From positions 396,240 to 460,239 of the forward strand of contig JBCCIC010000001.1 in the NCBI GenBank assembly GCA_039028435.1: DNA of 64,000 nt. Reading direction: 5' to 3'. The notes beneath the pieces were generated by a model that was given only the letters and a program-made list of their open reading frames with translations, made no database searches and was not told where the DNA came from. Positions 3,873-37,641 of this stretch are shown here, one piece after another; within the stretch, counting starts at the first letter, position 1; every line of letters starts with the position of its first letter. The position numbers and the translations under genes were made by a program. This stretch comes from Actinomycetota bacterium (lineage in GTDB: Bacteria; Actinomycetota; Acidimicrobiia; Acidimicrobiales; UBA10347).

Positions 3873-3905
3873 TGGTAGGCACTTGATGTAAGGCATACCA
3901 TACAA
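3873..3905 (+). promoter_or_regulatory. Two overlapping TAGG/TAAGG-type boxes (weak DtxR/IdeR-like) upstream of the binding-protein operon
   Basis: TGGTAGGCACTTGATGTAA (3873-3891) and TGTAAGGCATACCATACAA (3887-3905). The second is a 14/18 self-complementary palindrome. They lie in the divergent ALDH/PBP intergenic region. Confidence 0.35.
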
Positions 3906-3966
3906 ACTGACTCGCGACTTCCTAACAAGCGCGACACACAGCAACTCGCGGGAGAAGATTCACGAA

Positions 3967-5196
3967 ATGCCTCGTCGTCGTTTTCGTACGCTGATGACAC
4001 TCATCGGTGCCCTGGCACTGCTGGCTGCGGCTTGCAGTAGCGAACGGCCTGGCGGCGAAGCGGCCGCGGAATCGGCAAGCGAAGCCTCGGCGAGCGAGCC
4101 GTCCGAGAGCGCCAGCGCCGACGAAGCCAGCGGCGGCGAGGACAGCGCCGATGACGCTGACGACGCGGCATCCGAGCCCGAGCCCGACGTTGATCAGGAA
4201 GAGGACGGCGCTGACGAGGCAGCAGCCGACGAGGACGCCGCGGCAGAGCCGGAACCGACCGAGGAGCCAACACCGGAACCTGCACCCACCGAAGAGCCCT
4301 CGATCTACCCGATCACAATCAGTGATTCGTACGGCAACGAGTTCACCTTCGACGAGCGGCCCCGCATCGGGTGTGCGTGGTACGGCTGCATCGAAGCCGG
4401 CGCCGAGCTCGGTGTCACCTTTGAGGCGGCCATCATCACCGAGGAGGAAGCCGACTCGACGTTCTTCGGTGCGCTGCAGCCCGATGTCCTGATCGTCGAC
4501 TTCCTCAACCCCGAGGAGTGGGCCGCTGCCGACGTCGACCTCGTCGTCCTGAGTCCGGCGAGCAACACGCCCGAGCTGGATCCGATTCGCCAGGTGAACC
4601 CGCTCTTCTACCTCCACTACGACAACTTCCTCGCGCCGCAGTGGGAGGGCGTGATCGGTGGCTACGAGGGCTACCTCGAGAACCTGCGTCTCCTCGGCCA
4701 GCTGATGGATCGCACCGCCGAGGCCGAGGAAGCGATCGCCCGATTCGACCGGCTCGTCGAGAGCCTTGCCACCTACGCCACCCCGGAGATGGCCGACCAG
4801 ACGATCGCCATCATCGGTCTGCTCGGCTACGCCGCCCTCGGCCCCGGCAACGCCTTCTGCCAAATCCTCAACGAAGCCGGACACGGCACCTGCATCGGCG
4901 AGGGCGTCGCCCAGATTCTCAATGCCGAGGCCTTTCTGGCCCTCGATCCCGACGTGATCCTCGACCAGGATCCGGCGGCGCGAGACGGCGATCCGATCTG
5001 GCCGAACCTGTCGGCGGTCCAGGACGGCACCGTCTACGACATCGTGAGCAACCGGCACTACTGCTGCTCGACCAGCGGGCTGGTCCACGTGACCCAGGAG
5101 TACTTGAGCCTGCGCTTCCCGGACGCCGGCGTCGAGGATCCCGGTCCGGTCGAGGACTTCGACAGCCGACTTAGCCCTCTCGTCACCGAGGGGTGA
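3967..5196 (+). CDS. Lipoprotein, iron-siderophore (class III, FhuD/FepB-like) ABC substrate-binding protein
   Basis: Signal peptide plus lipobox (LLAAAC), then a ~90-aa Asp/Glu/Ala/Pro-rich linker, then a PBP-like body. It is the first gene of a FecCD/ATPase operon. Confidence 0.85.
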   Translation: MPRRRFRTLMTLIGALALLAAACSSERPGGEAAAESASEASASEPSESASADEASGGEDSADDADDAASEPEPDVDQEEDGADEAAADEDAAAEPEPTEEPTPEPAPTEEPSIYPITISDSYGNEFTFDERPRIGCAWYGCIEAGAELGVTFEAAIITEEEADSTFFGALQPDVLIVDFLNPEEWAAADVDLVVLSPASNTPELDPIRQVNPLFYLHYDNFLAPQWEGVIGGYEGYLENLRLLGQLMDRTAEAEEAIARFDRLVESLATYATPEMADQTIAIIGLLGYAALGPGNAFCQILNEAGHGTCIGEGVAQILNAEAFLALDPDVILDQDPAARDGDPIWPNLSAVQDGTVYDIVSNRHYCCSTSGLVHVTQEYLSLRFPDAGVEDPGPVEDFDSRLSPLVTEG

Positions 5197-6281
5197 CCGC
5201 GGTCGACGAGGCGGCGACCATCGGACCCGCCGACGGCAAGCCGTCGGTCGACGGGTCGACGGTTGCCGCTGGCCGCGCAACCCGACTCCTGGCCGCTGTC
5301 GGGCTCCTCACGATCGCCGTCGCCGCGCTCGTCCTCTACAACCTCACCCAGGGCGAGCCCGATCACTCGTTGTCGACCGCGCTCGACAATCTCCTTCGGA
5401 CGGGCCCGATCGCCGGCGACATCGACAGCATCCTGATCCGCGAGGTTCGCCTACCGCGCGTGCTGATGGCCCTCCTCGCCGGAAGCGCTCTGGGCCTGGC
5501 CGGGGTGTTGTTGCAGGACGCGCTCCGCAACCCGCTCGCCGATCCGACGCTGCTCGGCGTCGCCCAGGGTGCCGGTTTCGTGATCGCCCTCGCCTCGATC
5601 TACCCGGAACTGGTTCCGCCGCTGCCGACCTCGGTGCTGTGCTTCATCGGCGGAACCCTGGCCGGATCCGTGGTGCTCGTCTTGAGCCGTCGCTCGCGCA
5701 ACCCGGTGCGTGTGGTGCTGGCGGGCGCCATGGTGTCGATCCTCTTCGCAACCTTGTCGAGTGTGGTCATCCTCATCACGCCTCGAACACGGGGTCTCGG
5801 CATCATCGAGTACTTCCGGTTCGTGATCGGGTCGTTCATCGATGTCACCTGGGACAGCATCGGTGCTGTCCTGCCGTGGTTCCTCCTTGCCGTTCCGCTG
5901 GGGCTCGCCAGCGCCCGGATCGTGAACCTGCTCTCGCTGGGCGACGAAGCTGCGTCGTCGCTCGGACTCAACCCCGGCCGGGCCCGCATCGGTCTGATGA
6001 TCCTGTCGATGGCATTGGTGACCCCATACGTTGCCCAGATCGGCCCGATCGGTTTCGTGGCCCTGTTCGCACCACACGTCTCCCGAAGCCTCATCGCCAG
6101 CTCCGATGCGCTCCGAGTGATGATCACCTCGGCCTTCGCCGGCGCGCTCATGTTGCTGACCGCCGACACCGCGGCGCGGCTGCTGTTCTTCCCCTTCGAG
6201 GTCCCAGCGGGCGTGTTCACCTTCCTGATCGTCGGACCACTCGCGCTGGTCATCGTCGGTCGCCTCGGACGTAGTCGATGA
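5193..6281 (+). CDS. FecCD-family iron-siderophore ABC permease
   Basis: The GTG start overlaps the upstream stop (GTGA). Polytopic membrane protein with typical FecCD motifs (REVRLPRVLMALLAGSALGLAGVLLQ..RNPLADP). Confidence 0.9.
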   Translation: MTAVDEAATIGPADGKPSVDGSTVAAGRATRLLAAVGLLTIAVAALVLYNLTQGEPDHSLSTALDNLLRTGPIAGDIDSILIREVRLPRVLMALLAGSALGLAGVLLQDALRNPLADPTLLGVAQGAGFVIALASIYPELVPPLPTSVLCFIGGTLAGSVVLVLSRRSRNPVRVVLAGAMVSILFATLSSVVILITPRTRGLGIIEYFRFVIGSFIDVTWDSIGAVLPWFLLAVPLGLASARIVNLLSLGDEAASSLGLNPGRARIGLMILSMALVTPYVAQIGPIGFVALFAPHVSRSLIASSDALRVMITSAFAGALMLLTADTAARLLFFPFEVPAGVFTFLIVGPLALVIVGRLGRSR

Positions 6282-32493: not shown

Positions 32494-33780
32494 TCAGCGC
32501 GGGTGGCGGCCTCGATCGCCTGCGAAGCTCTTCTCGTTGCCGGCAACCGCGGCGACGATGTCATCGGGCGTGGCGATCGTGGTCTCGGCCTCGGTCGGTG
32601 CGGCCGACGCTGCCAACAGAGCGAGCGTCGATCGGCACAGCTTCTCGTCGTCGAGCACGCCCACGCGCCGGCCGAGCTCCATTGCGGCCATGGCCGGCTT
32701 GGCGAGATGCGGCAGGTGTTTGTGCCAGGTGTTCGGCACGCCAAGCTCATCGGCGACCTGCTCGCCGGCCCAGTAGCGGGTGAACCCGTAGAGCAGCTTG
32801 CGCAGCCGCAGCGGCGGAAACATCGCCGTCACGACCTTCGGGAAGACATCGAGGTTCGGGGCGTCCTCGCCTTCTTGGGTCGCCAGCTCGATGAGTTGGC
32901 GAACGAGGTTCCGACACTCGTCGTCAGCACCCGGATCGAGACCGAGATAGATGTCGGCGAGCTGGCGTCCGTGCGCAACATCGCGATGCAGCAGGTGCTC
33001 GGGGACCCCCATCACCCAGCCGATATACCGCCAGAGCGCGTAGATGTCCTCGAGCTCCTGATCCGAGAAGCGAACCCCGACGGCGATCAACGGATCGACC
33101 ATCGCCTGGGTGAAGTCGTAGGAGATCGCGTAGAGCCCGTCGGTGTGGGCCATCGGCATGCCCCAGTCGTCCCAATCCCAGTGGGGGCTACGGGCACATT
33201 GCTTGCGGACCATCGCGTGAAGAAGACGGACTTGGGCCGAGAGCTTGAAGCCTTCGCTGAACCGCTCCATCCCGCCCGGCGAGACCGCTTCGACGAGCCA
33301 GCGAGTCGTCTCCTTGGCCCGCACGTAAGCATTGTCGGCAAGGCGCCCGGTGAAGACCACCGGACGGGAGATTCCATAGGCCTGCTCACTGCCGGCGATG
33401 ACCGAACACGTCAGAGCGAACGAGACCATGGGCCCGGCGCGGAAATAGGCGATGGAGCCGCGGCGAAGCTGTTCGTCGTCGACCCAGTCCGGCCGATTGT
33501 CGAGCAGTTCGAAGAGCCGCACCAGCGAATCCGGAGGGTCCTCGACGGTCTCGATGCCATGATCGAGGGCCTGACGGAACATGCGTCGTCCGGACGCACC
33601 CGGCAGGGCGGCGAAATCATCGAGCACCTCGAGTGCCAGATCGTCGGCCGTCATGTAGCCATCGATCACCGGCTGGACGGCGGCCTCGCCGTGTCGGGCC
33701 ATGACCTCGGCGACGTTGGCACAACGGCCGAGCTCGTGTGGAGCCACCGTCACCCGGTTCTCGAACACCGTTGCAGCCAT
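32494..33780 (-). CDS. MpaB/DUF2236-family oxygenase-like protein
   Basis: 428 aa containing VRLLHAMVR and overall resemblance to the ER-bound oxygenase MpaB / rubber-oxygenase catalytic domain family (assignment from memory). Confidence 0.65.
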   Translation of the reverse strand: MAATVFENRVTVAPHELGRCANVAEVMARHGEAAVQPVIDGYMTADDLALEVLDDFAALPGASGRRMFRQALDHGIETVEDPPDSLVRLFELLDNRPDWVDDEQLRRGSIAYFRAGPMVSFALTCSVIAGSEQAYGISRPVVFTGRLADNAYVRAKETTRWLVEAVSPGGMERFSEGFKLSAQVRLLHAMVRKQCARSPHWDWDDWGMPMAHTDGLYAISYDFTQAMVDPLIAVGVRFSDQELEDIYALWRYIGWVMGVPEHLLHRDVAHGRQLADIYLGLDPGADDECRNLVRQLIELATQEGEDAPNLDVFPKVVTAMFPPLRLRKLLYGFTRYWAGEQVADELGVPNTWHKHLPHLAKPAMAAMELGRRVGVLDDEKLCRSTLALLAASAAPTEAETTIATPDDIVAAVAGNEKSFAGDRGRHPR

Positions 33781-33849
33781 ACGTCCCCCTCGGTCGACAC
33801 CACCATAGATCGGTGCCGTCGGGTGAGCGAGTGGCGACCCGGTGCGGGC

Positions 33850-34485
33850 TTAGCTGCCGGCTGCAGGCAGGTGATGGCCGAGCTTGCTGGCCTTCACCCC
33901 GAGGTAACGCTCGTTGTGCTCGTTCGGCGGGATCACGACCGGCACGCGCTCGACGACGTCGACGCCGAGTGCACGTAGCTCATCCACCTTGCGAGGGTTG
34001 TTGGTCAGCAGGCGAATGGGCCCGACATCGAGGTCATCGAGGATCTCCGCGGCATCGCGATAGGTGCGCTGATCCGCCGCATAGCCGAGCGCCTCGTTCG
34101 CCTCGACCGTGTCCAGGCCATCGTCCTGCAGCCGATACGCACGCATCTTGGCGGTGAGGCCGATCCCGCGACCTTCCTGATCGAGGTAGACGACGAGCCC
34201 GACACCCTCGGCGACGATCATCTCGAGCGATGCGTGCAGCTGTGCGCCACAGTCGCACCGAAGCGAGCCGAAGATGTCGCCGGTGACGCAGGACGAGTGC
34301 ACACGGACCAGCAGCGGCTCCGTTGCCGATGCGAGGTCGCCGGCGATGATCGCCGCGTGGTGCGCACCACCCGTGCCGTCGTAGGCGTAACACGTGAACG
34401 TGCCGAATGCCGTCGGCAGCTTCGCCGGACCACCGCGACCCCGCTCAGGCGCAGCTCGCCCATCGGGCAGTGGGTTGACACTCAC
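33850..34485 (-). CDS. ribA: GTP cyclohydrolase II (monofunctional RibA)
   Basis: VRVHSSCVTGDIFGSLRCDCGAQL (Zn-ligand Cys triad), YLDQEGRGIGL and LLTNNPRK. GTG 34485 lies 2 nt after the upstream stop. The track start at 34584 overlaps the ATPase gene. Confidence 0.9.
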   Translation of the reverse strand: MSVNPLPDGRAAPERGRGGPAKLPTAFGTFTCYAYDGTGGAHHAAIIAGDLASATEPLLVRVHSSCVTGDIFGSLRCDCGAQLHASLEMIVAEGVGLVVYLDQEGRGIGLTAKMRAYRLQDDGLDTVEANEALGYAADQRTYRDAAEILDDLDVGPIRLLTNNPRKVDELRALGVDVVERVPVVIPPNEHNERYLGVKASKLGHHLPAAGS

Positions 34486-34487
34486 GG

Positions 34488-35201
34488 TCAGCGCCGGTCG
34501 GGTCGCGGGCCGATCCCGAGAAACTCCGTCACCTGAGGATTGGCGAGTGCCTCGGGGGTCGGAGCACAGCAGATGCACGCGCAACAGAGGGCCACGGTGA
34601 GCTCGGCTTCGGCGGCCTCTCGGACGCTGTGCGTCGCGTAGACGACGGTGACGCCTTCGTCGGCAACCTCGCGAATGACCGAACGAAGACGTTCCCGTGT
34701 TGGCACGTCGACACCCGTGGTCGGTTCGTCGAGCAGCAGGATGGGGGCCTTCTGGGCGAGACCCTGAGCAAGCAGTGCCCGCTGACGCTGGCCGCCGGAC
34801 AACGCGTGAATCGGCGTGCGGCGATGATCGATCAGGTCCACGCGTTCGAGGGATTCCTCGACGATCCGGCGATCCGATTTGGTCATTGGACGCAACAAAC
34901 CGCGCGCCCGATACCGGCCCTGTCGCACGACATCTTCGACCGTCAACGGCACCTGCGGGTCGATGTCGGTCGTTTGGAGCACCTCGGCGGCCTCGCCCTC
35001 GACCTCGACCCGCCCGCGCGATGGTCGAAGCCGACCGCTGATCAGCCCCAACAATGTCGACTTCCCGCCACCGTTCGGCCCGACCACCGACGTGACCGTG
35101 CCGGCAGGGATCTCGAAGGTGACGTCCTCAAGCGCGAGGCGCTTTCTGCGGTGGGCGTCGACTCGCTCAAGCCGGATCGCCGACTCGGTTCTCGGCACCA
35201 C
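34488..35201 (-). CDS. Metal-type (ZnuC/MntB/AztA-like) ABC ATPase, orphan, with an internal CCACICC cysteine cluster
   Basis: GTG start. GPNGGGKSTL, LSGGQRQR, LLLDEPTTGVD and YATHS. Codons 34566-34586 encode C-C-A-C-I-C-C. No cognate permease or binding-protein gene is adjacent. Confidence 0.85.
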   Translation of the reverse strand: MVPRTESAIRLERVDAHRRKRLALEDVTFEIPAGTVTSVVGPNGGGKSTLLGLISGRLRPSRGRVEVEGEAAEVLQTTDIDPQVPLTVEDVVRQGRYRARGLLRPMTKSDRRIVEESLERVDLIDHRRTPIHALSGGQRQRALLAQGLAQKAPILLLDEPTTGVDVPTRERLRSVIREVADEGVTVVYATHSVREAAEAELTVALCCACICCAPTPEALANPQVTEFLGIGPRPDRR

Positions 35202-35224
35202 ACCACCCTAGGGCGCTTCATCCG

Positions 35225-35241
35225 AATGAGACTCACTCTCG
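35225..35241. promoter_or_regulatory. Second copy of the AATGAGACTCAYTCTYG box
   Basis: AATGAGACTCACTCTCG lies 24-40 nt upstream of the ATPase GTG (35201). It is 15/17 identical to 31179-31195. Confidence 0.4.
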
Positions 35242-35265
35242 CTACAAGCCGTGAATTCCGCCCAT

Positions 35266-35301
35266 ACATAGCGACATTGCAATATTGCACCGTTACTATG
35301 T
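35266..35301. promoter_or_regulatory. ArsR/SmtB-type operator candidate (imperfect 18/18 inverted repeat with a perfect 12-bp core)
   Basis: ACATAGCGACATTGCAAT|ATTGCACCGTTACTATGT. The core TGCAATATTGCA (35278-35289) is a perfect palindrome and the outer ACATAG/CTATGT arms are perfect. It sits immediately upstream of the regulator start. Confidence 0.5.
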
Positions 35302-35305
35302 TTCC

Positions 35306-35647
35306 GTGCCCCGTCGACCTTCGACCCACCACACCGACCAAGCGTTCATCGAGAGCGCCGAACTCCTCAAGGCGATGGCGCATCCACTGCGGCTCTCACT
35401 GCTCTCGTCGCTTGTCGACGAGCCCAAGTGCGTGCACGAGCTCGTCGAGTCGAGCGGAGCGACCCAACCGCTGGTGTCGCAACACCTGCGAGTCCTGCGC
35501 GCCGCGAGCCTCGTTCGCAGCGATCGCCGCGGCCGTGAGGTCGTCTACGCGATCGCCGACACCCACATCCACCACATCGTGATCGACGCCGTCGACCACG
35601 TCCGAACCGAAGGAGATCACCATGGCCCCCACGTGCACGATGCATAA
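35306..35647 (+). CDS. ArsR/SmtB-family metal-responsive transcriptional repressor
   Basis: HTH region LKAMAHPLRLSLLSSLVDEPKCVHELVESSGATQPLVSQHLRVLR. An alpha5-like ligand string (ADTHIHHIVIDAVDHVRTE) and a His-rich tail (EGDHHGPHVHDA). The alternative TTG start at 35285 lies inside the palindrome. Confidence 0.85.
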   Translation: MPRRPSTHHTDQAFIESAELLKAMAHPLRLSLLSSLVDEPKCVHELVESSGATQPLVSQHLRVLRAASLVRSDRRGREVVYAIADTHIHHIVIDAVDHVRTEGDHHGPHVHDA

Positions 35648-35918
35648 GGACCATCCCCACACCCACGGACCCGGCTGCGGGCACGAAGCGATTCCCCACG
35701 GCGACCACATCGACTACATCCACGACGGCCACGCTCACCGAGAACACGATGGCCACTGGGACGAGTGTGTTCCCGCGGAGCACATCGTCCACGAAGACCA
35801 CCCGCACATGCACGGACCCGGCTGCGGCCACGAAGCCGTCCCGCACGGCGACCACGTCGACTACATCCACGACGGTCACCGTCACGCATGGCACGACGAC
35901 CACTGGGACGAGCACTGA
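35622..35918 (+). CDS. Small His/Cys/Asp-rich protein made of two 42-aa repeats (putative metal-binding protein, family not recognised)
   Basis: 26 His and 4 Cys in 98 aa. The repeats HxDHPHxHGPGCGHEAxPHGDHxDYIHDGHxHxxHDxHWDE are 33/42 identical. The start (ATG 35622 or 35640) overlaps the 3' end of the ArsR gene. Confidence 0.7.
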   Translation: MAPTCTMHKDHPHTHGPGCGHEAIPHGDHIDYIHDGHAHREHDGHWDECVPAEHIVHEDHPHMHGPGCGHEAVPHGDHVDYIHDGHRHAWHDDHWDEH

Positions 35919-35947
35919 TCGCACCAGCCTCCACGAAGTGATGCGGT

Positions 35948-35964
35948 TTGGTGCCTGGCACCAA
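35948..35964. repeat. Perfect 17-nt palindrome TTGGTGCC-T-GGCACCAA (hairpin or operator)
   Basis: Lies 30 nt after the His-rich gene stop and 64 nt before the BVMO start. No T-tract. Confidence 0.35.
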
Positions 35965-36027
35965 TCGTTACACGCGGGCGGCATCTGTCTCGGAGCGAAC
36001 CACGACTAGCACCTATCGTGGATTGGC

Positions 36028-37641
36028 GTGATGCACTATGACGCCATCATCGTCGGCGCAGGGTTCGGCGGCCTCTACGCCCTGCACCGTCTTCGCGACG
36101 AGCTAGGCCTGTCGGTGCGCGCGTTCGACAGTGCCGGCGGCGTCGGCGGCACCTGGTGGTACAACCGCTATCCCGGCGCGCGAGTCGACGCGCCGAGCAG
36201 CCCGTTCTACGCGTACACCTTCTCCCAGGAGCTCATCGACGAGTGGGACTGGAAGGAGACCCAAACCGCTGGATCGGATGTGCTCGCCTACCTCGAACAC
36301 TTCGCCGAGCGGTTCGACCTCCACAAGGACATCCAGTTCGACACCTGGGTCACCGACGCCACCTACGACGAGATCGAGCAACGTTGGGCGATCGAGACCG
36401 ACGGCGGGGAACATGCGACCGCTCGATTCTTGGTCTGCGCCACCGGTGCCCTGTTCGTCGCCAACAAGCCCGACTACCCCGGCATCGACGACTTCGCCGG
36501 CGAGTGCCATCACACCGGCCGCTGGCCCCACGACCCGGTGTCGTTCGAGGGCAAGCGGGTCGGCGTGATCGGCACGGGGTCCTCAGGGGTCCAATCGATC
36601 CCCGAGATTGCCAAGGAAGCCGCCCACGTCACCGTCTTTCAGCGCACGCCGCAGTACGCCTTACCCGCTCGGAATCGGCCACTCGATGACGACGAGCGCG
36701 AGCGCTACCGCCGCGACTGGGCCACCCTGCGCGACTCGATGTACCGACGCGGCGGGTGGCCGTTCCCCCTCCAGACCGAGCGCGCAGACGACTTCACACC
36801 CGAACAGCGACGCGAGCGCTACGAGGAGTTGTGGACCGAGGGCGGCATGCACCTCTCGATCAACAGCTACCGCGGCGTGCTGACCGATGAAGAGCTGAAC
36901 GACGAGGTCTCCGACTTCGTGCGAGACAAGATCCGAGCAGCCGTCGATGACCCGGCAACGGCGCGCAAGCTCCTCCCCGACTACCACTTCGGCACCAAGC
37001 GGCTCATCCTCGACAACGGCTACTTCGAGACGTACAACCGAGACAACGTCACCCTCGTCGACCTTCGCGAAGATCCGATCCAGTCGTTCTCGGCCGATGC
37101 GGTGCTCACCGAGCACGGTGAGCACCCGATCGACATGTTGGTGCTCGCCACCGGCTTCGATGCCGTCAGCGGGTCGATGCTCAAGATCAACCCAAAGGGC
37201 CGTGGCGGAACGCCGCTCGCCGACAAGTGGAACGCTCGCTTCGACACGTACCTCGGGATGGCCATCGCCGGTTACCCCAACCTCTTCATGATCCATGGAC
37301 CCGGTTCGCCCGGCGTGCTCTACACCATGCCCCTCGGCGGCGAACGCCAGACCGCATGGATCGAGCGATGCATCCGCCACCTCGACGAGGCCGGTCTCGG
37401 TTCCATGGAAGCCACCGAGGATGCCGAGGCGGCATGGGACTACGAGATCTCGTCGGCGGCAGAACGCACCCTCTACCCGCGCACCAAGTCGTGGTACACC
37501 GGCGCCAACATCCCCGGTAAACCGCGACAATTCCTCGCCCATCTCCGGGGCTCGCAGTACTTCGACCGGCTCGACGAGATCGCAGACAACGGCTTCGAGG
37601 GATTCGAGTTCGAGCCTGCGGTCGCACCGGCCACGCACTGA
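36028..37641 (+). CDS. Baeyer-Villiger / flavin-containing monooxygenase (cyclohexanone monooxygenase family)
   Basis: IIVGAGFGGL...GGTWWYNRYPG, the BVMO fingerprint FAGECHHTGRWP, and a second GxGxxG (GVIGTGSSG). Confidence 0.9.
   Translation: MMHYDAIIVGAGFGGLYALHRLRDELGLSVRAFDSAGGVGGTWWYNRYPGARVDAPSSPFYAYTFSQELIDEWDWKETQTAGSDVLAYLEHFAERFDLHKDIQFDTWVTDATYDEIEQRWAIETDGGEHATARFLVCATGALFVANKPDYPGIDDFAGECHHTGRWPHDPVSFEGKRVGVIGTGSSGVQSIPEIAKEAAHVTVFQRTPQYALPARNRPLDDDERERYRRDWATLRDSMYRRGGWPFPLQTERADDFTPEQRRERYEELWTEGGMHLSINSYRGVLTDEELNDEVSDFVRDKIRAAVDDPATARKLLPDYHFGTKRLILDNGYFETYNRDNVTLVDLREDPIQSFSADAVLTEHGEHPIDMLVLATGFDAVSGSMLKINPKGRGGTPLADKWNARFDTYLGMAIAGYPNLFMIHGPGSPGVLYTMPLGGERQTAWIERCIRHLDEAGLGSMEATEDAEAAWDYEISSAAERTLYPRTKSWYTGANIPGKPRQFLAHLRGSQYFDRLDEIADNGFEGFEFEPAVAPATH

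Follow-up and report, generated by a model that had tools for sequence, protein, structure and literature searches.

What purpose is served by a small protein in which about every fourth residue is a histidine, and why does its gene begin inside that of a metal sensor? The question is raised by a 64,000-nucleotide (nt) stretch of DNA from an Actinomycetota bacterium (contig JBCCIC010000001.1; the window in what follows, with coordinates counted from its first letter), in which a gene for an ArsR/SmtB-family metalloregulator (35306..35647, plus strand, 113 amino acids (aa) from GTG 35306) runs into an open reading frame (ORF) for a His-rich two-repeat protein of 98 aa (35622..35918, plus strand). 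The answer bears on the buffering and routing of cytosolic zinc in bacteria, where metallothioneins are rare and the COG0523 chaperones have few known clients. The ORF 35622-35918 is a real gene of a large family lacking a name. As to its role, we favour, with a probability of roughly 55%, an autoregulated operon of arsR and the His-rich gene (arsR-H), whose second product would be a cytosolic multi-site Zn(II)-binding protein made on metallation of the sensor, a His-based counterpart of the SmtB-controlled metallothionein. This reading is built on the gene arrangement, the conservation, the predicted fold and the zinc-related neighbours and fusions observed here.

The protein contains 26 His (26.5%), 4 Cys and 13 Asp and carries two repeats (repeat 1, aa 8-49, 35643..35768; repeat 2, aa 57-98, 35790..35915; both plus strand) of the same architecture, an HxxHxHxHGPGCGH motif followed by four predicted beta-strands with GD/DG turns. 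The ORF positions, the His and Cys counts, the two 42-aa repeats identical at 33/42 residues and the period of 147 nt given by the first-pass annotation were all reproduced, and the DNA identity of the repeats, estimated there at about 78%, is 79% (100/126 nt); where codons differ between the repeats, eight changes are synonymous and nine non-synonymous. Each 42-residue unit offers about 13 ligand-type residues. Among 106 aligned homologues the columns H13, C19, H21, H39, C68, H70 and H78 never vary, and a conservation of at least 90% is reached by about 33 others, nearly all of them His, Asp, Cys or Glu or the Gly, Asp and Pro of turns; this ordered motif, conserved across phyla, is more than chance. 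A recent tandem duplication was rejected as the origin of the repeats, because like repeats are slightly closer to each other across species (0.63 for repeat 1 with repeat 1, 0.65 for repeat 2 with repeat 2) than the two unlike repeats are (0.59); the value of 0.79 between the repeats of the window protein is the highest within-protein one. By these comparisons, the duplication is old.

A search of 5.8 billion clustered proteins returned 2059 homologues at E<=0.01, annotated as 'hypothetical' or, evidently wrongly, as 'threonine dehydratase', and an exhaustive profile run against 1.84 billion representatives gave 1312 clusters (50% identity) at E<=1e-3 and 562 at E<=1e-10. The best homologues are 72-77% identical to the window protein (E down to 2.6e-37), and the closest relative found, at locus L005 of an Actinomycetota metagenome-assembled genome, has a His-rich protein that is 81% identical (L and P numbers denote homologous loci and proteins of our samples). 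Over its full length the window protein resembles an unnamed family of the pattern HxxHxHxHGPGCGH ... HGDHxDY ... HDGHxH ... HxDE, with the ligand columns kept in both repeats. The hosts are Actinomycetota, Pseudomonadota, Leptospira and Acidobacteria. An actinobacterial subtype of about 98-101 aa occurs in Streptomyces, Nocardia, Amycolatopsis, Corynebacterium, Propionibacterium and Mycobacterium, among other genera, while a second subtype of 113-120 aa with a longer, Cys-containing linker belongs to Pseudomonadota, Leptospiraceae and Acidobacteria.

The statement of the first-pass annotation that no named family can be assigned has stood. Scans of the window protein against Pfam and NCBIfam gave no credible family, Pfam at E<=10 gave only chance-level matches (E >= 0.018) for 16 aligned homologues, searches of the PDB sequences with the profile and with a single repeat returned nothing, and an exact look-up of the window protein sequence found no record. 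The family thus has neither a model nor a relative of solved structure, and a literature search of incomplete coverage turned up no account of it, although an earlier one may exist. This absence from the databases, and the many false ORFs that high-GC DNA produces, could invite the view that the ORF is spurious or a low-complexity His tract without specific function. Against it stand thousands of homologues across phyla with invariant columns, the conserved synteny and fusions, the confident fold predictions, a Shine-Dalgarno sequence and a gene-like codon-position GC; we regard the view as practically dismissed. The GC content of codon positions 1/2/3 is 0.78/0.37/0.82 in the His-rich gene and 0.76/0.41/0.79 in arsR, in DNA of 66% G+C overall, and the matching pattern speaks for a real gene.

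The same earlier annotation saw in the ordered pattern a folded multi-site unit rather than a random His tract, and conservation across phyla and structure prediction both agree with this. AlphaFold2 modelled the window protein (with 106 homologues) at a predicted local distance difference test score (pLDDT) of 77.8 and a predicted template-modelling score (pTM) of 0.59, and P0087, a member of the Gram-negative type (with 83 homologues), at pLDDT 88.1 and pTM 0.81. In both models a unit is present twice that opens with an N-terminal loop, HxxHxHxHGPGCGH, and continues with four short strands connected through GD/DG turns of two residues. The strands comprise aa 22-26, 29-34, 37-42 and 45-49 in repeat 1 of the window protein and aa 71-75, 78-83, 86-91 and 94-97 in repeat 2; the strand pattern is equal in the window protein and in P0087, which gives the two a common predicted fold of two four-strand beta meanders. 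From the geometry of hairpins rather than from computation, H26, H29, H42 and H45 would be aligned on one face together with D31, R40, D47, E22 and C49, the opposite end would gather H21, H34 and H37 close to C19, and P25, I30, W46, A23 and Y32 would make up a more hydrophobic face.

Foldseek against the PDB found nothing significant for these models (best E 0.75 and 1.3). The zinc-binding domain of the pneumococcal histidine triad (Pht) proteins (PDB 2cs7, 6csl) is likewise a short beta-rich zinc-binding unit, and its core HGDHxHY resembles the HGDHxDY of the His-rich family. Foldseek lists 2cs7 and 6csl with 26-32% identity over 27-34 columns, which is not significant (E 6.2-7.8, template-modelling score 0.14-0.27). 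The third His of the triad is Asp in the His-rich family, and the Pht proteins, unlike the window protein, are large, streptococcal and surface-located. The resemblance is a lead only, since the Pfam model Strep_his_triad gives no match at E<=10; with the PDB sequence searches empty as well, the window protein was not counted as a Pht domain.

The gene upstream of the His-rich one encodes a winged helix-turn-helix (HTH) protein of the ArsR family (Pfam HTH_5, E 1.3e-11; NCBIfam HTH_metalloreg, 85.4 bits, cutoff 55). Its features had been described correctly from the sequence: CVH in the HTH region (C42-V43-H44, numbered from 35306), DTH-x10-H in the alpha5 helix (D85-T86-H87-x10-H98) and a His-rich tail, EGDHHGPHVHDA. 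T101 occupies the position of the canonical fourth ligand (+3) and E102 follows at +4. A recent review (PMC11672702) gives DxHx10Hx2(E/H) as the canonical Zn(II) sensor motif. The full motif is present in 19 of 21 ArsRs encoded directly before homologues in metagenome loci, and because the partner ArsRs carry this alpha5 zinc-sensor motif, the SmtB-SmtA logic proposed for the locus by the first-pass annotation holds. The ArsR of L005 shares the peculiarities of the window ArsR, including T at +3 and E at +4, and its tail is even richer in His. In an alignment that included the ArsRs beside homologues, the window ArsR is 40% identical to NmtR, 32% to SmtB and 21% to CzrA, the three reference sequences having been entered by hand.

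These identities lend some weight to a different metal, i.e. a nickel/cobalt store or chaperone under an NmtR-like sensor, with a role comparable to that of Hpn in Helicobacter. The DTH that starts the alpha5 motif is also found in NmtR, additional His residues stand at both termini (H8, H9; tail DHHGPHVHDA), and the still more His-rich tail of the L005 ArsR points the same way. His-rich proteins often prefer Ni(II), as do Hpn, HypB and UreE. Hpn and Hpn-like proteins, the nickel stores of Helicobacter, are also very rich in His, small, cytosolic and presumed to store or buffer metal. However, Hpn, which stands under the control of NikR, is of low complexity and contains runs of His, whereas the His-rich family has a position-specific motif, a confident predicted fold and a zinc-type context. 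No sequence similarity to Hpn was detected, and a low-complexity protein of the Hpn type was rejected as an identity, the motif being ordered, conserved across phyla and confidently modelled. In more than 170 loci no enzyme, transporter or regulator for nickel or cobalt came up, such neighbours and fusions as are informative all belong to the zinc type, and the partner ArsRs outside the window's clade have a plain zinc-type motif without His tails. The hint at a Ni/Co sensor made by the first-pass annotation has thus given way to zinc, and we consider the nickel/cobalt explanation improbable.

Genomic context was surveyed in 80 actinobacterial genome loci and in 80 Gram-negative-type metagenome loci, 76 of the latter having enough upstream DNA for the arsR count. 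In 25/76 metagenome loci the His-rich gene is immediately preceded by an ArsR gene of the same strand, with gaps of -4 to +40 nt, and the order ArsR-H recurs in Alphaproteobacteria (Aureimonas), Leptospiraceae, Acidobacteria (Bryobacteraceae) and other contigs. The coupling of the two genes, which had been deduced from a single locus, is borne out by this recurrence as well as by the overlap and internal Shine-Dalgarno sequence described below. That homologues always stand beside ArsR genes was rejected by the locus counts: such a neighbour occurs in about a third of the Gram-negative-type loci and about 5/80 of the actinobacterial ones, and Fur, COG0523 and ZnuABC/Azt genes are equally recurrent. 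A Fur-family gene is present in 14/80 metagenome loci, mostly directly 3' of the His-rich gene; these Fur-family neighbours were not assignable to Zur by NCBIfam, all scoring below the cutoff. COG0523 genes occur in 9/80 of the metagenome loci, ZnuB-type permeases in 8, ZnuC-type ATPases in 8 and ZnuA-type binding proteins in 5, and a ZigA-like COG0523 GTPase is adjacent in 7/80 actinobacterial loci, the remaining ones having lineage-specific, seemingly unrelated neighbours. Single loci add to this picture. L091 has a divergent Zn/Cd-type P1B ATPase (473 bits with the cadmium-family P-type ATPase model TIGR01512, cutoff 313.5), L089 a ZnuD-like receptor, a Zur-like regulator, an SO_0444-type Cu/Zn efflux protein and cobW, and in L005 the neighbours of the ArsR-H pair are two AztA-like ATPases plus one AztC-like binding protein. 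Wherever an association is informative it leads to zinc homeostasis, never to systems for nickel, cobalt or copper.

Under the favoured reading, arsR and the His-rich gene would form one operon, and a metal-free ArsR/SmtB dimer would occupy the palindrome TGCAATATTGCA that overlaps the promoter. A rise of cytosolic Zn(II) would load metal onto the alpha5 helix (D85, H87, H98 and a nearby carboxylate or His) and release the repressor, and with the repressor off the DNA both genes would be expressed, translation of the His-rich gene being coupled to that of arsR through the 26-nt overlap and the internal Shine-Dalgarno sequence. The product would be an all-beta protein of two units of about 42 residues, each an HxxHxHxHGPGCGH loop with a four-strand meander, in which His, Asp and Cys alternate with few hydrophobic residues and may form ligand ladders across neighbouring strands. 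Most likely several Zn(II) ions would be bound per chain, which would make the protein a high-capacity, exchangeable zinc buffer or a hand-over protein. No signal peptide is evident in the window protein, and a cytosolic location is therefore presumed. What we infer in this scheme is that the protein binds metal, that this metal is zinc, that metal derepresses the operon and that the protein serves as a buffer.

The nearest analogy would be SmtB-SmtA, in which an alpha5-type ArsR/SmtB repressor likewise controls a small metal-binding protein of the cytosol that is made as metal rises. SmtA is Cys-rich with a zinc-finger-like fold, whereas the 98 residues of the window protein include 26 His and 4 Cys, its predicted structure is all-beta, and it resembles SmtA neither in sequence nor in fold. 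Furthermore, smtA diverges from smtB, while the His-rich gene of the window lies downstream of its regulator gene and overlaps it, and unlike SmtB-SmtA the His-rich family is as often linked to Fur, COG0523 and Znu genes. With four Cys in 98 residues and no match in Pfam or NCBIfam, a bacterial metallothionein (SmtA/BmtA) was discarded as an identity for the protein.

Several observations weigh against the operon with a zinc-buffering product. Zinc is assigned from the neighbours only, with no characterised homologue to lean on, and the AlphaFold models are metal-free and therefore give no geometry of metal sites. By its sequence, the window ArsR appears to lack the canonical fourth alpha5 ligand, is nearest to the Ni/Co sensor NmtR and ends in a His-rich tail. 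A scan of 35150-36060 for consensus promoters and terminators found none, and the promoter assignment and the transcript boundaries are for this reason putative. Adjacency to ArsR in only about 5/80 actinobacterial loci belongs here as well, as do the 42/80 metagenome loci, several of them on short contigs, where no neighbours of the tested kinds were found. Finally, the Fur/COG0523/Znu neighbours of many members fit a store or chaperone better than a detoxifying sink, because such genes are typical of the zinc-limitation response.

This last point leads to a zinc reserve or metallochaperone for times of scarcity, which would pass exchangeable Zn(II) to clients or act together with COG0523 GTPases and Znu/Azt importers, the pairing with ArsR being but one regulatory variant. 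The Fur-family, COG0523 and ZnuABC neighbours of the metagenome loci, the ZigA-like GTPases adjoining the gene in seven actinobacterial loci, the ensemble of ZnuD-like receptor, Zur-like regulator and cobW in L089 and a C-terminal fusion to an importer permease all speak for it, as do weak Zur-box-like sites about 150 nt upstream in L016, L017 and L051, which are shared with a divergent COG0523 gene. The COG0523 zinc metallochaperone GTPases (ZigA, YeiR, ZagA) share these neighbourhoods and presumably the same zinc-allocation physiology. They are P-loop GTPases of 320-400 aa, whereas the His-rich protein lacks any nucleotide-binding motif and only has them as neighbours; membership in COG0523 was rejected, as the protein has no cobW match and the COG0523 proteins are encoded by separate neighbouring genes. 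On the other side, it is the excess-sensing ArsR and not Zur that would drive the gene in the window and in a third of the Gram-negative-type loci, the Fur-family neighbours fall below the NCBIfam cutoff for Zur, and a good Zur box directly upstream is rare. With the Zur box TGAAAATGATTTTCA, as given in PMC2823685, a site with no more than 4 mismatches is present in at most 8/80 actinobacterial loci, several of these sites also serving a divergent COG0523 gene, and Zur as a general regulator of the actinobacterial homologues was rejected. All in all, a role in scarcity is possible, if rather unlikely.

A further explanation follows from the order of the regulator genes. ArsR-type and Fur-family regulators are joined in one operon in the znr/smtB-zur arrangement, of which Rv2358-Rv2359 of M. 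tuberculosis, a smtB-zur operon, is an example. For znr-zur of C. glutamicum the arrangement is described in PMC2823685. The order ArsR-H-Fur, found in seven metagenome loci and in the Bryobacteraceae genome L088, places the His-rich gene inside this arrangement, exactly between the two regulators. The operons as described there have no intervening gene, and in the window no Fur-family gene follows the His-rich gene. One could therefore imagine a partner or module of zinc-sensing transcription factors, which would exchange zinc with ArsR/SmtB and Zur, or serve as a sensory extension when fused, and so tune set-points rather than act as a bulk buffer. The commonest neighbours are indeed regulators and not transporters (ArsR in 23-25/80 metagenome loci, Fur in 14/80). 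Fusions point in the same direction: the His-rich domain follows whole ArsR domains at their C-terminal side in three distinct clusters (50% identity), repeatedly in independent samples, and in Amoebozoa (Physarum polycephalum, Nematostelium gracile and related eukaryotic contigs) C-terminal to multi-C2H2 zinc-finger proteins, i.e. to C2H2 transcription factors. However, most members stand alone and many lie far from any regulator gene, and about 13 ligand-type residues per repeat exceed the normal need of a sensor; we hold this explanation to be doubtful.

The amoebozoan fusion proteins (P0146, P0160, P0162, P0174, P0186, P0223, P0231) carry a bacterial-type two-repeat copy, which suggests horizontal transfer and might possibly serve as a metal-responsive domain of the transcription factor. 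Going further, and tentatively, the His/Cys/Asp beta unit of about 42 residues could be a hitherto unrecognised zinc-sensing or zinc-transfer domain that acts directly with transcription factors, its free form trading zinc with SmtB-type ArsR and Zur and thereby setting their thresholds, and its fused form, with ArsR in bacteria and with C2H2 factors in Amoebozoa, being itself sensory. We think this unlikely; if true, it would mean a zinc-regulatory module common to bacteria and eukaryotes whose fold is absent from the PDB.

Small metal-binding proteins wired to metal sensors are a kind already known; new are the unrecognised fold and family, the unusually broad distribution and the unusually clear genetic links. 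Genetic links tie the family to zinc control on its two sides, that of the excess sensor ArsR/SmtB and that of Fur/Zur-COG0523-Znu. It is an easily expressed candidate for a zinc buffer or hand-over protein based on His, such as has been missing so far. Annotators gain a definable domain, as some single-repeat copies are mislabelled 'zinc transporter permease' or 'threonine dehydratase'. The former label is carried by 49-aa single-repeat proteins on Rhodococcus plasmids (MSDDHKTHTHPDHVHGENCGHEAIPHDDHVDYVHDGHRHAPHGDHYDEH), for example at L173 3965-4114 on Rhodococcus qingshengii plasmid pN9T4-1 (WP_125053458.1), and likewise by our search hits numbered H8, H13 and H14. This label probably stems from permease fusions such as P0194, in which the His-rich domain is C-terminal to an AztB/ZnuB-like ABC-3 permease. 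Judged from such short proteins, one His-rich repeat is evidently able to stand alone. In Kibdelosporangium aridum (L045 4284-5276) the His-rich gene is present twice in tandem after arsR (matches 4620-4850 and 5001-5273).

Returning to the window, the two genes overlap by 26 nt (35622..35647, plus strand), with the arsR stop codon TAA at 35645-35647 and the His-rich gene in the +1 frame. A Shine-Dalgarno sequence, AGGAG (35611..35615, plus strand), can be read within the 3' end of arsR, 6 nt ahead of ATG 35622. Two starts, ATG 35622 and ATG 35640, had been left open by the first-pass annotation. The homologue P0082 shares the N-terminus MAPTCT with the window protein and has Thr in place of Met7; ATG 35640 is thus not conserved, and ATG 35622 is the better start. 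For arsR itself, GTG 35306 and TTG 35285 (plus strand; 120 aa, as placed by the mechanical ORF list) are both possible, GTG 35306 sitting 7 nt past a possible -10 hexamer, TACTAT. The overlap also holds a CCCCC run (35626-35630). As a pure sequence observation, a +1 slip of tRNA-Pro on CCC-C (35627-35630) would fuse ArsR residues 1-108 in frame to the His-rich protein from residue 4 onward; in-frame ArsR-H fusions occur naturally in other organisms (P0127, P0140, P0205).

The putative promoter/operator of the arsR-H operon (35266..35299, plus strand) contains three tandem 8-mers, ACATAGCG, ACATTGCA and ATATTGCA. The perfect 12-bp palindrome lies at 35278-35289, between a weak -35 (GCGACA, 35271-35276) and the -10 hexamer (35294-35299), and is unique within the window (self-overlapping matches only; 0.04 expected by chance). 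Palindromes directly upstream of arsR are also present in L005, L085, L091 and L088; in L005, ACATTGCAATGT stands at the corresponding place, and in L085, a Leptospiraceae contig, the palindrome is perfect over 28 bp. A hairpin past the stop codon of the His-rich gene is no better than in shuffled sequences (z -0.94), and Rfam gave no match to a riboswitch or leader RNA near the gene in the window or in eight related loci.

Upstream elements of other kinds accompany the relatives. An 18-nt element, ATGC[AG][CT]A-N5-TAAT[AG]T, precedes the His-rich gene in 20/80 actinobacterial loci, from Nocardia, Saccharopolyspora, Actinokineospora and Pseudonocardiaceae (L007, L009, L011, L012, L014, L015, L021, L023, L025, L027, L039, L042, L043, L050, L056, L068, L070, L074, L075, L084). 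It is placed 59-110 nt upstream of the match at about 5001, has 0 occurrences elsewhere in those loci (1.5 Mb) and looks like an extended -10 with a conserved upstream half; a similar sequence, ATGCGAACATTGCAATGT, is found upstream of arsR in L005. Streptomyces homologues (L013, L022, L029, L035, L038, L040, L044, L046, L055, L058, L062, L065, L078, L082) have a long conserved leader, CCAC-GCAAG-CGGGATGCCCCGATATGCGCCGTTCGCGTGGCAGCCTGTCCGAC ... CCGAAGGTGAGCACCATGACC, with the inverted repeat GCCACGC/GCGTGGC about 40-110 nt upstream and without a match in Rfam. Corynebacterium homologues (L006, L019, L028, L069, L071) show direct repeats, TGAAAAC-N4-CTGAAAACG, 25-45 nt upstream, which hold Zur-box-like TGAAAA half-sites, but in direct rather than inverted orientation. 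Two Nocardia loci contain Rfam msiK RNA elements on the minus strand (L009 1366-1423, 43.9 bits; L011 1377-1434, 41.2 bits; gathering score 33) upstream of an ATP-binding cassette (ABC) ATPase gene, unrelated to the His-rich gene.

Divergent from arsR, and separated from it by a 104-bp intergenic region common to both, is the gene of an AztA-like zinc-type ABC transporter ATPase (34488..35201, minus strand; NCBIfam AztA, E 4.2e-61, 205.8 bits and thus just below the cutoff of 220). Downstream of it on the minus strand follows GTP cyclohydrolase II, RibA (33850..34584; Pfam GTP_cyclohydro2, E 2.3e-62; NCBIfam RibA subfamily, 237.9 bits, cutoff 148), whose C-x10-C-x-C zinc motif is intact in the translation. 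The longest RibA ORF overlaps that of the ATPase by 97 nt, and an MpaB/Lcp-type oxygenase-like protein comes next in the unit. The divergent minus-strand unit (32494-35201) is odd in that its AztA-like ATPase has no permease or binding protein nearby. In L005, a 412-aa ORF without an NCBIfam match (3885-5123, minus strand) lies between an AztA-like ATPase and the AztC-like binding protein, in the position where an Azt-type accessory protein might be expected.

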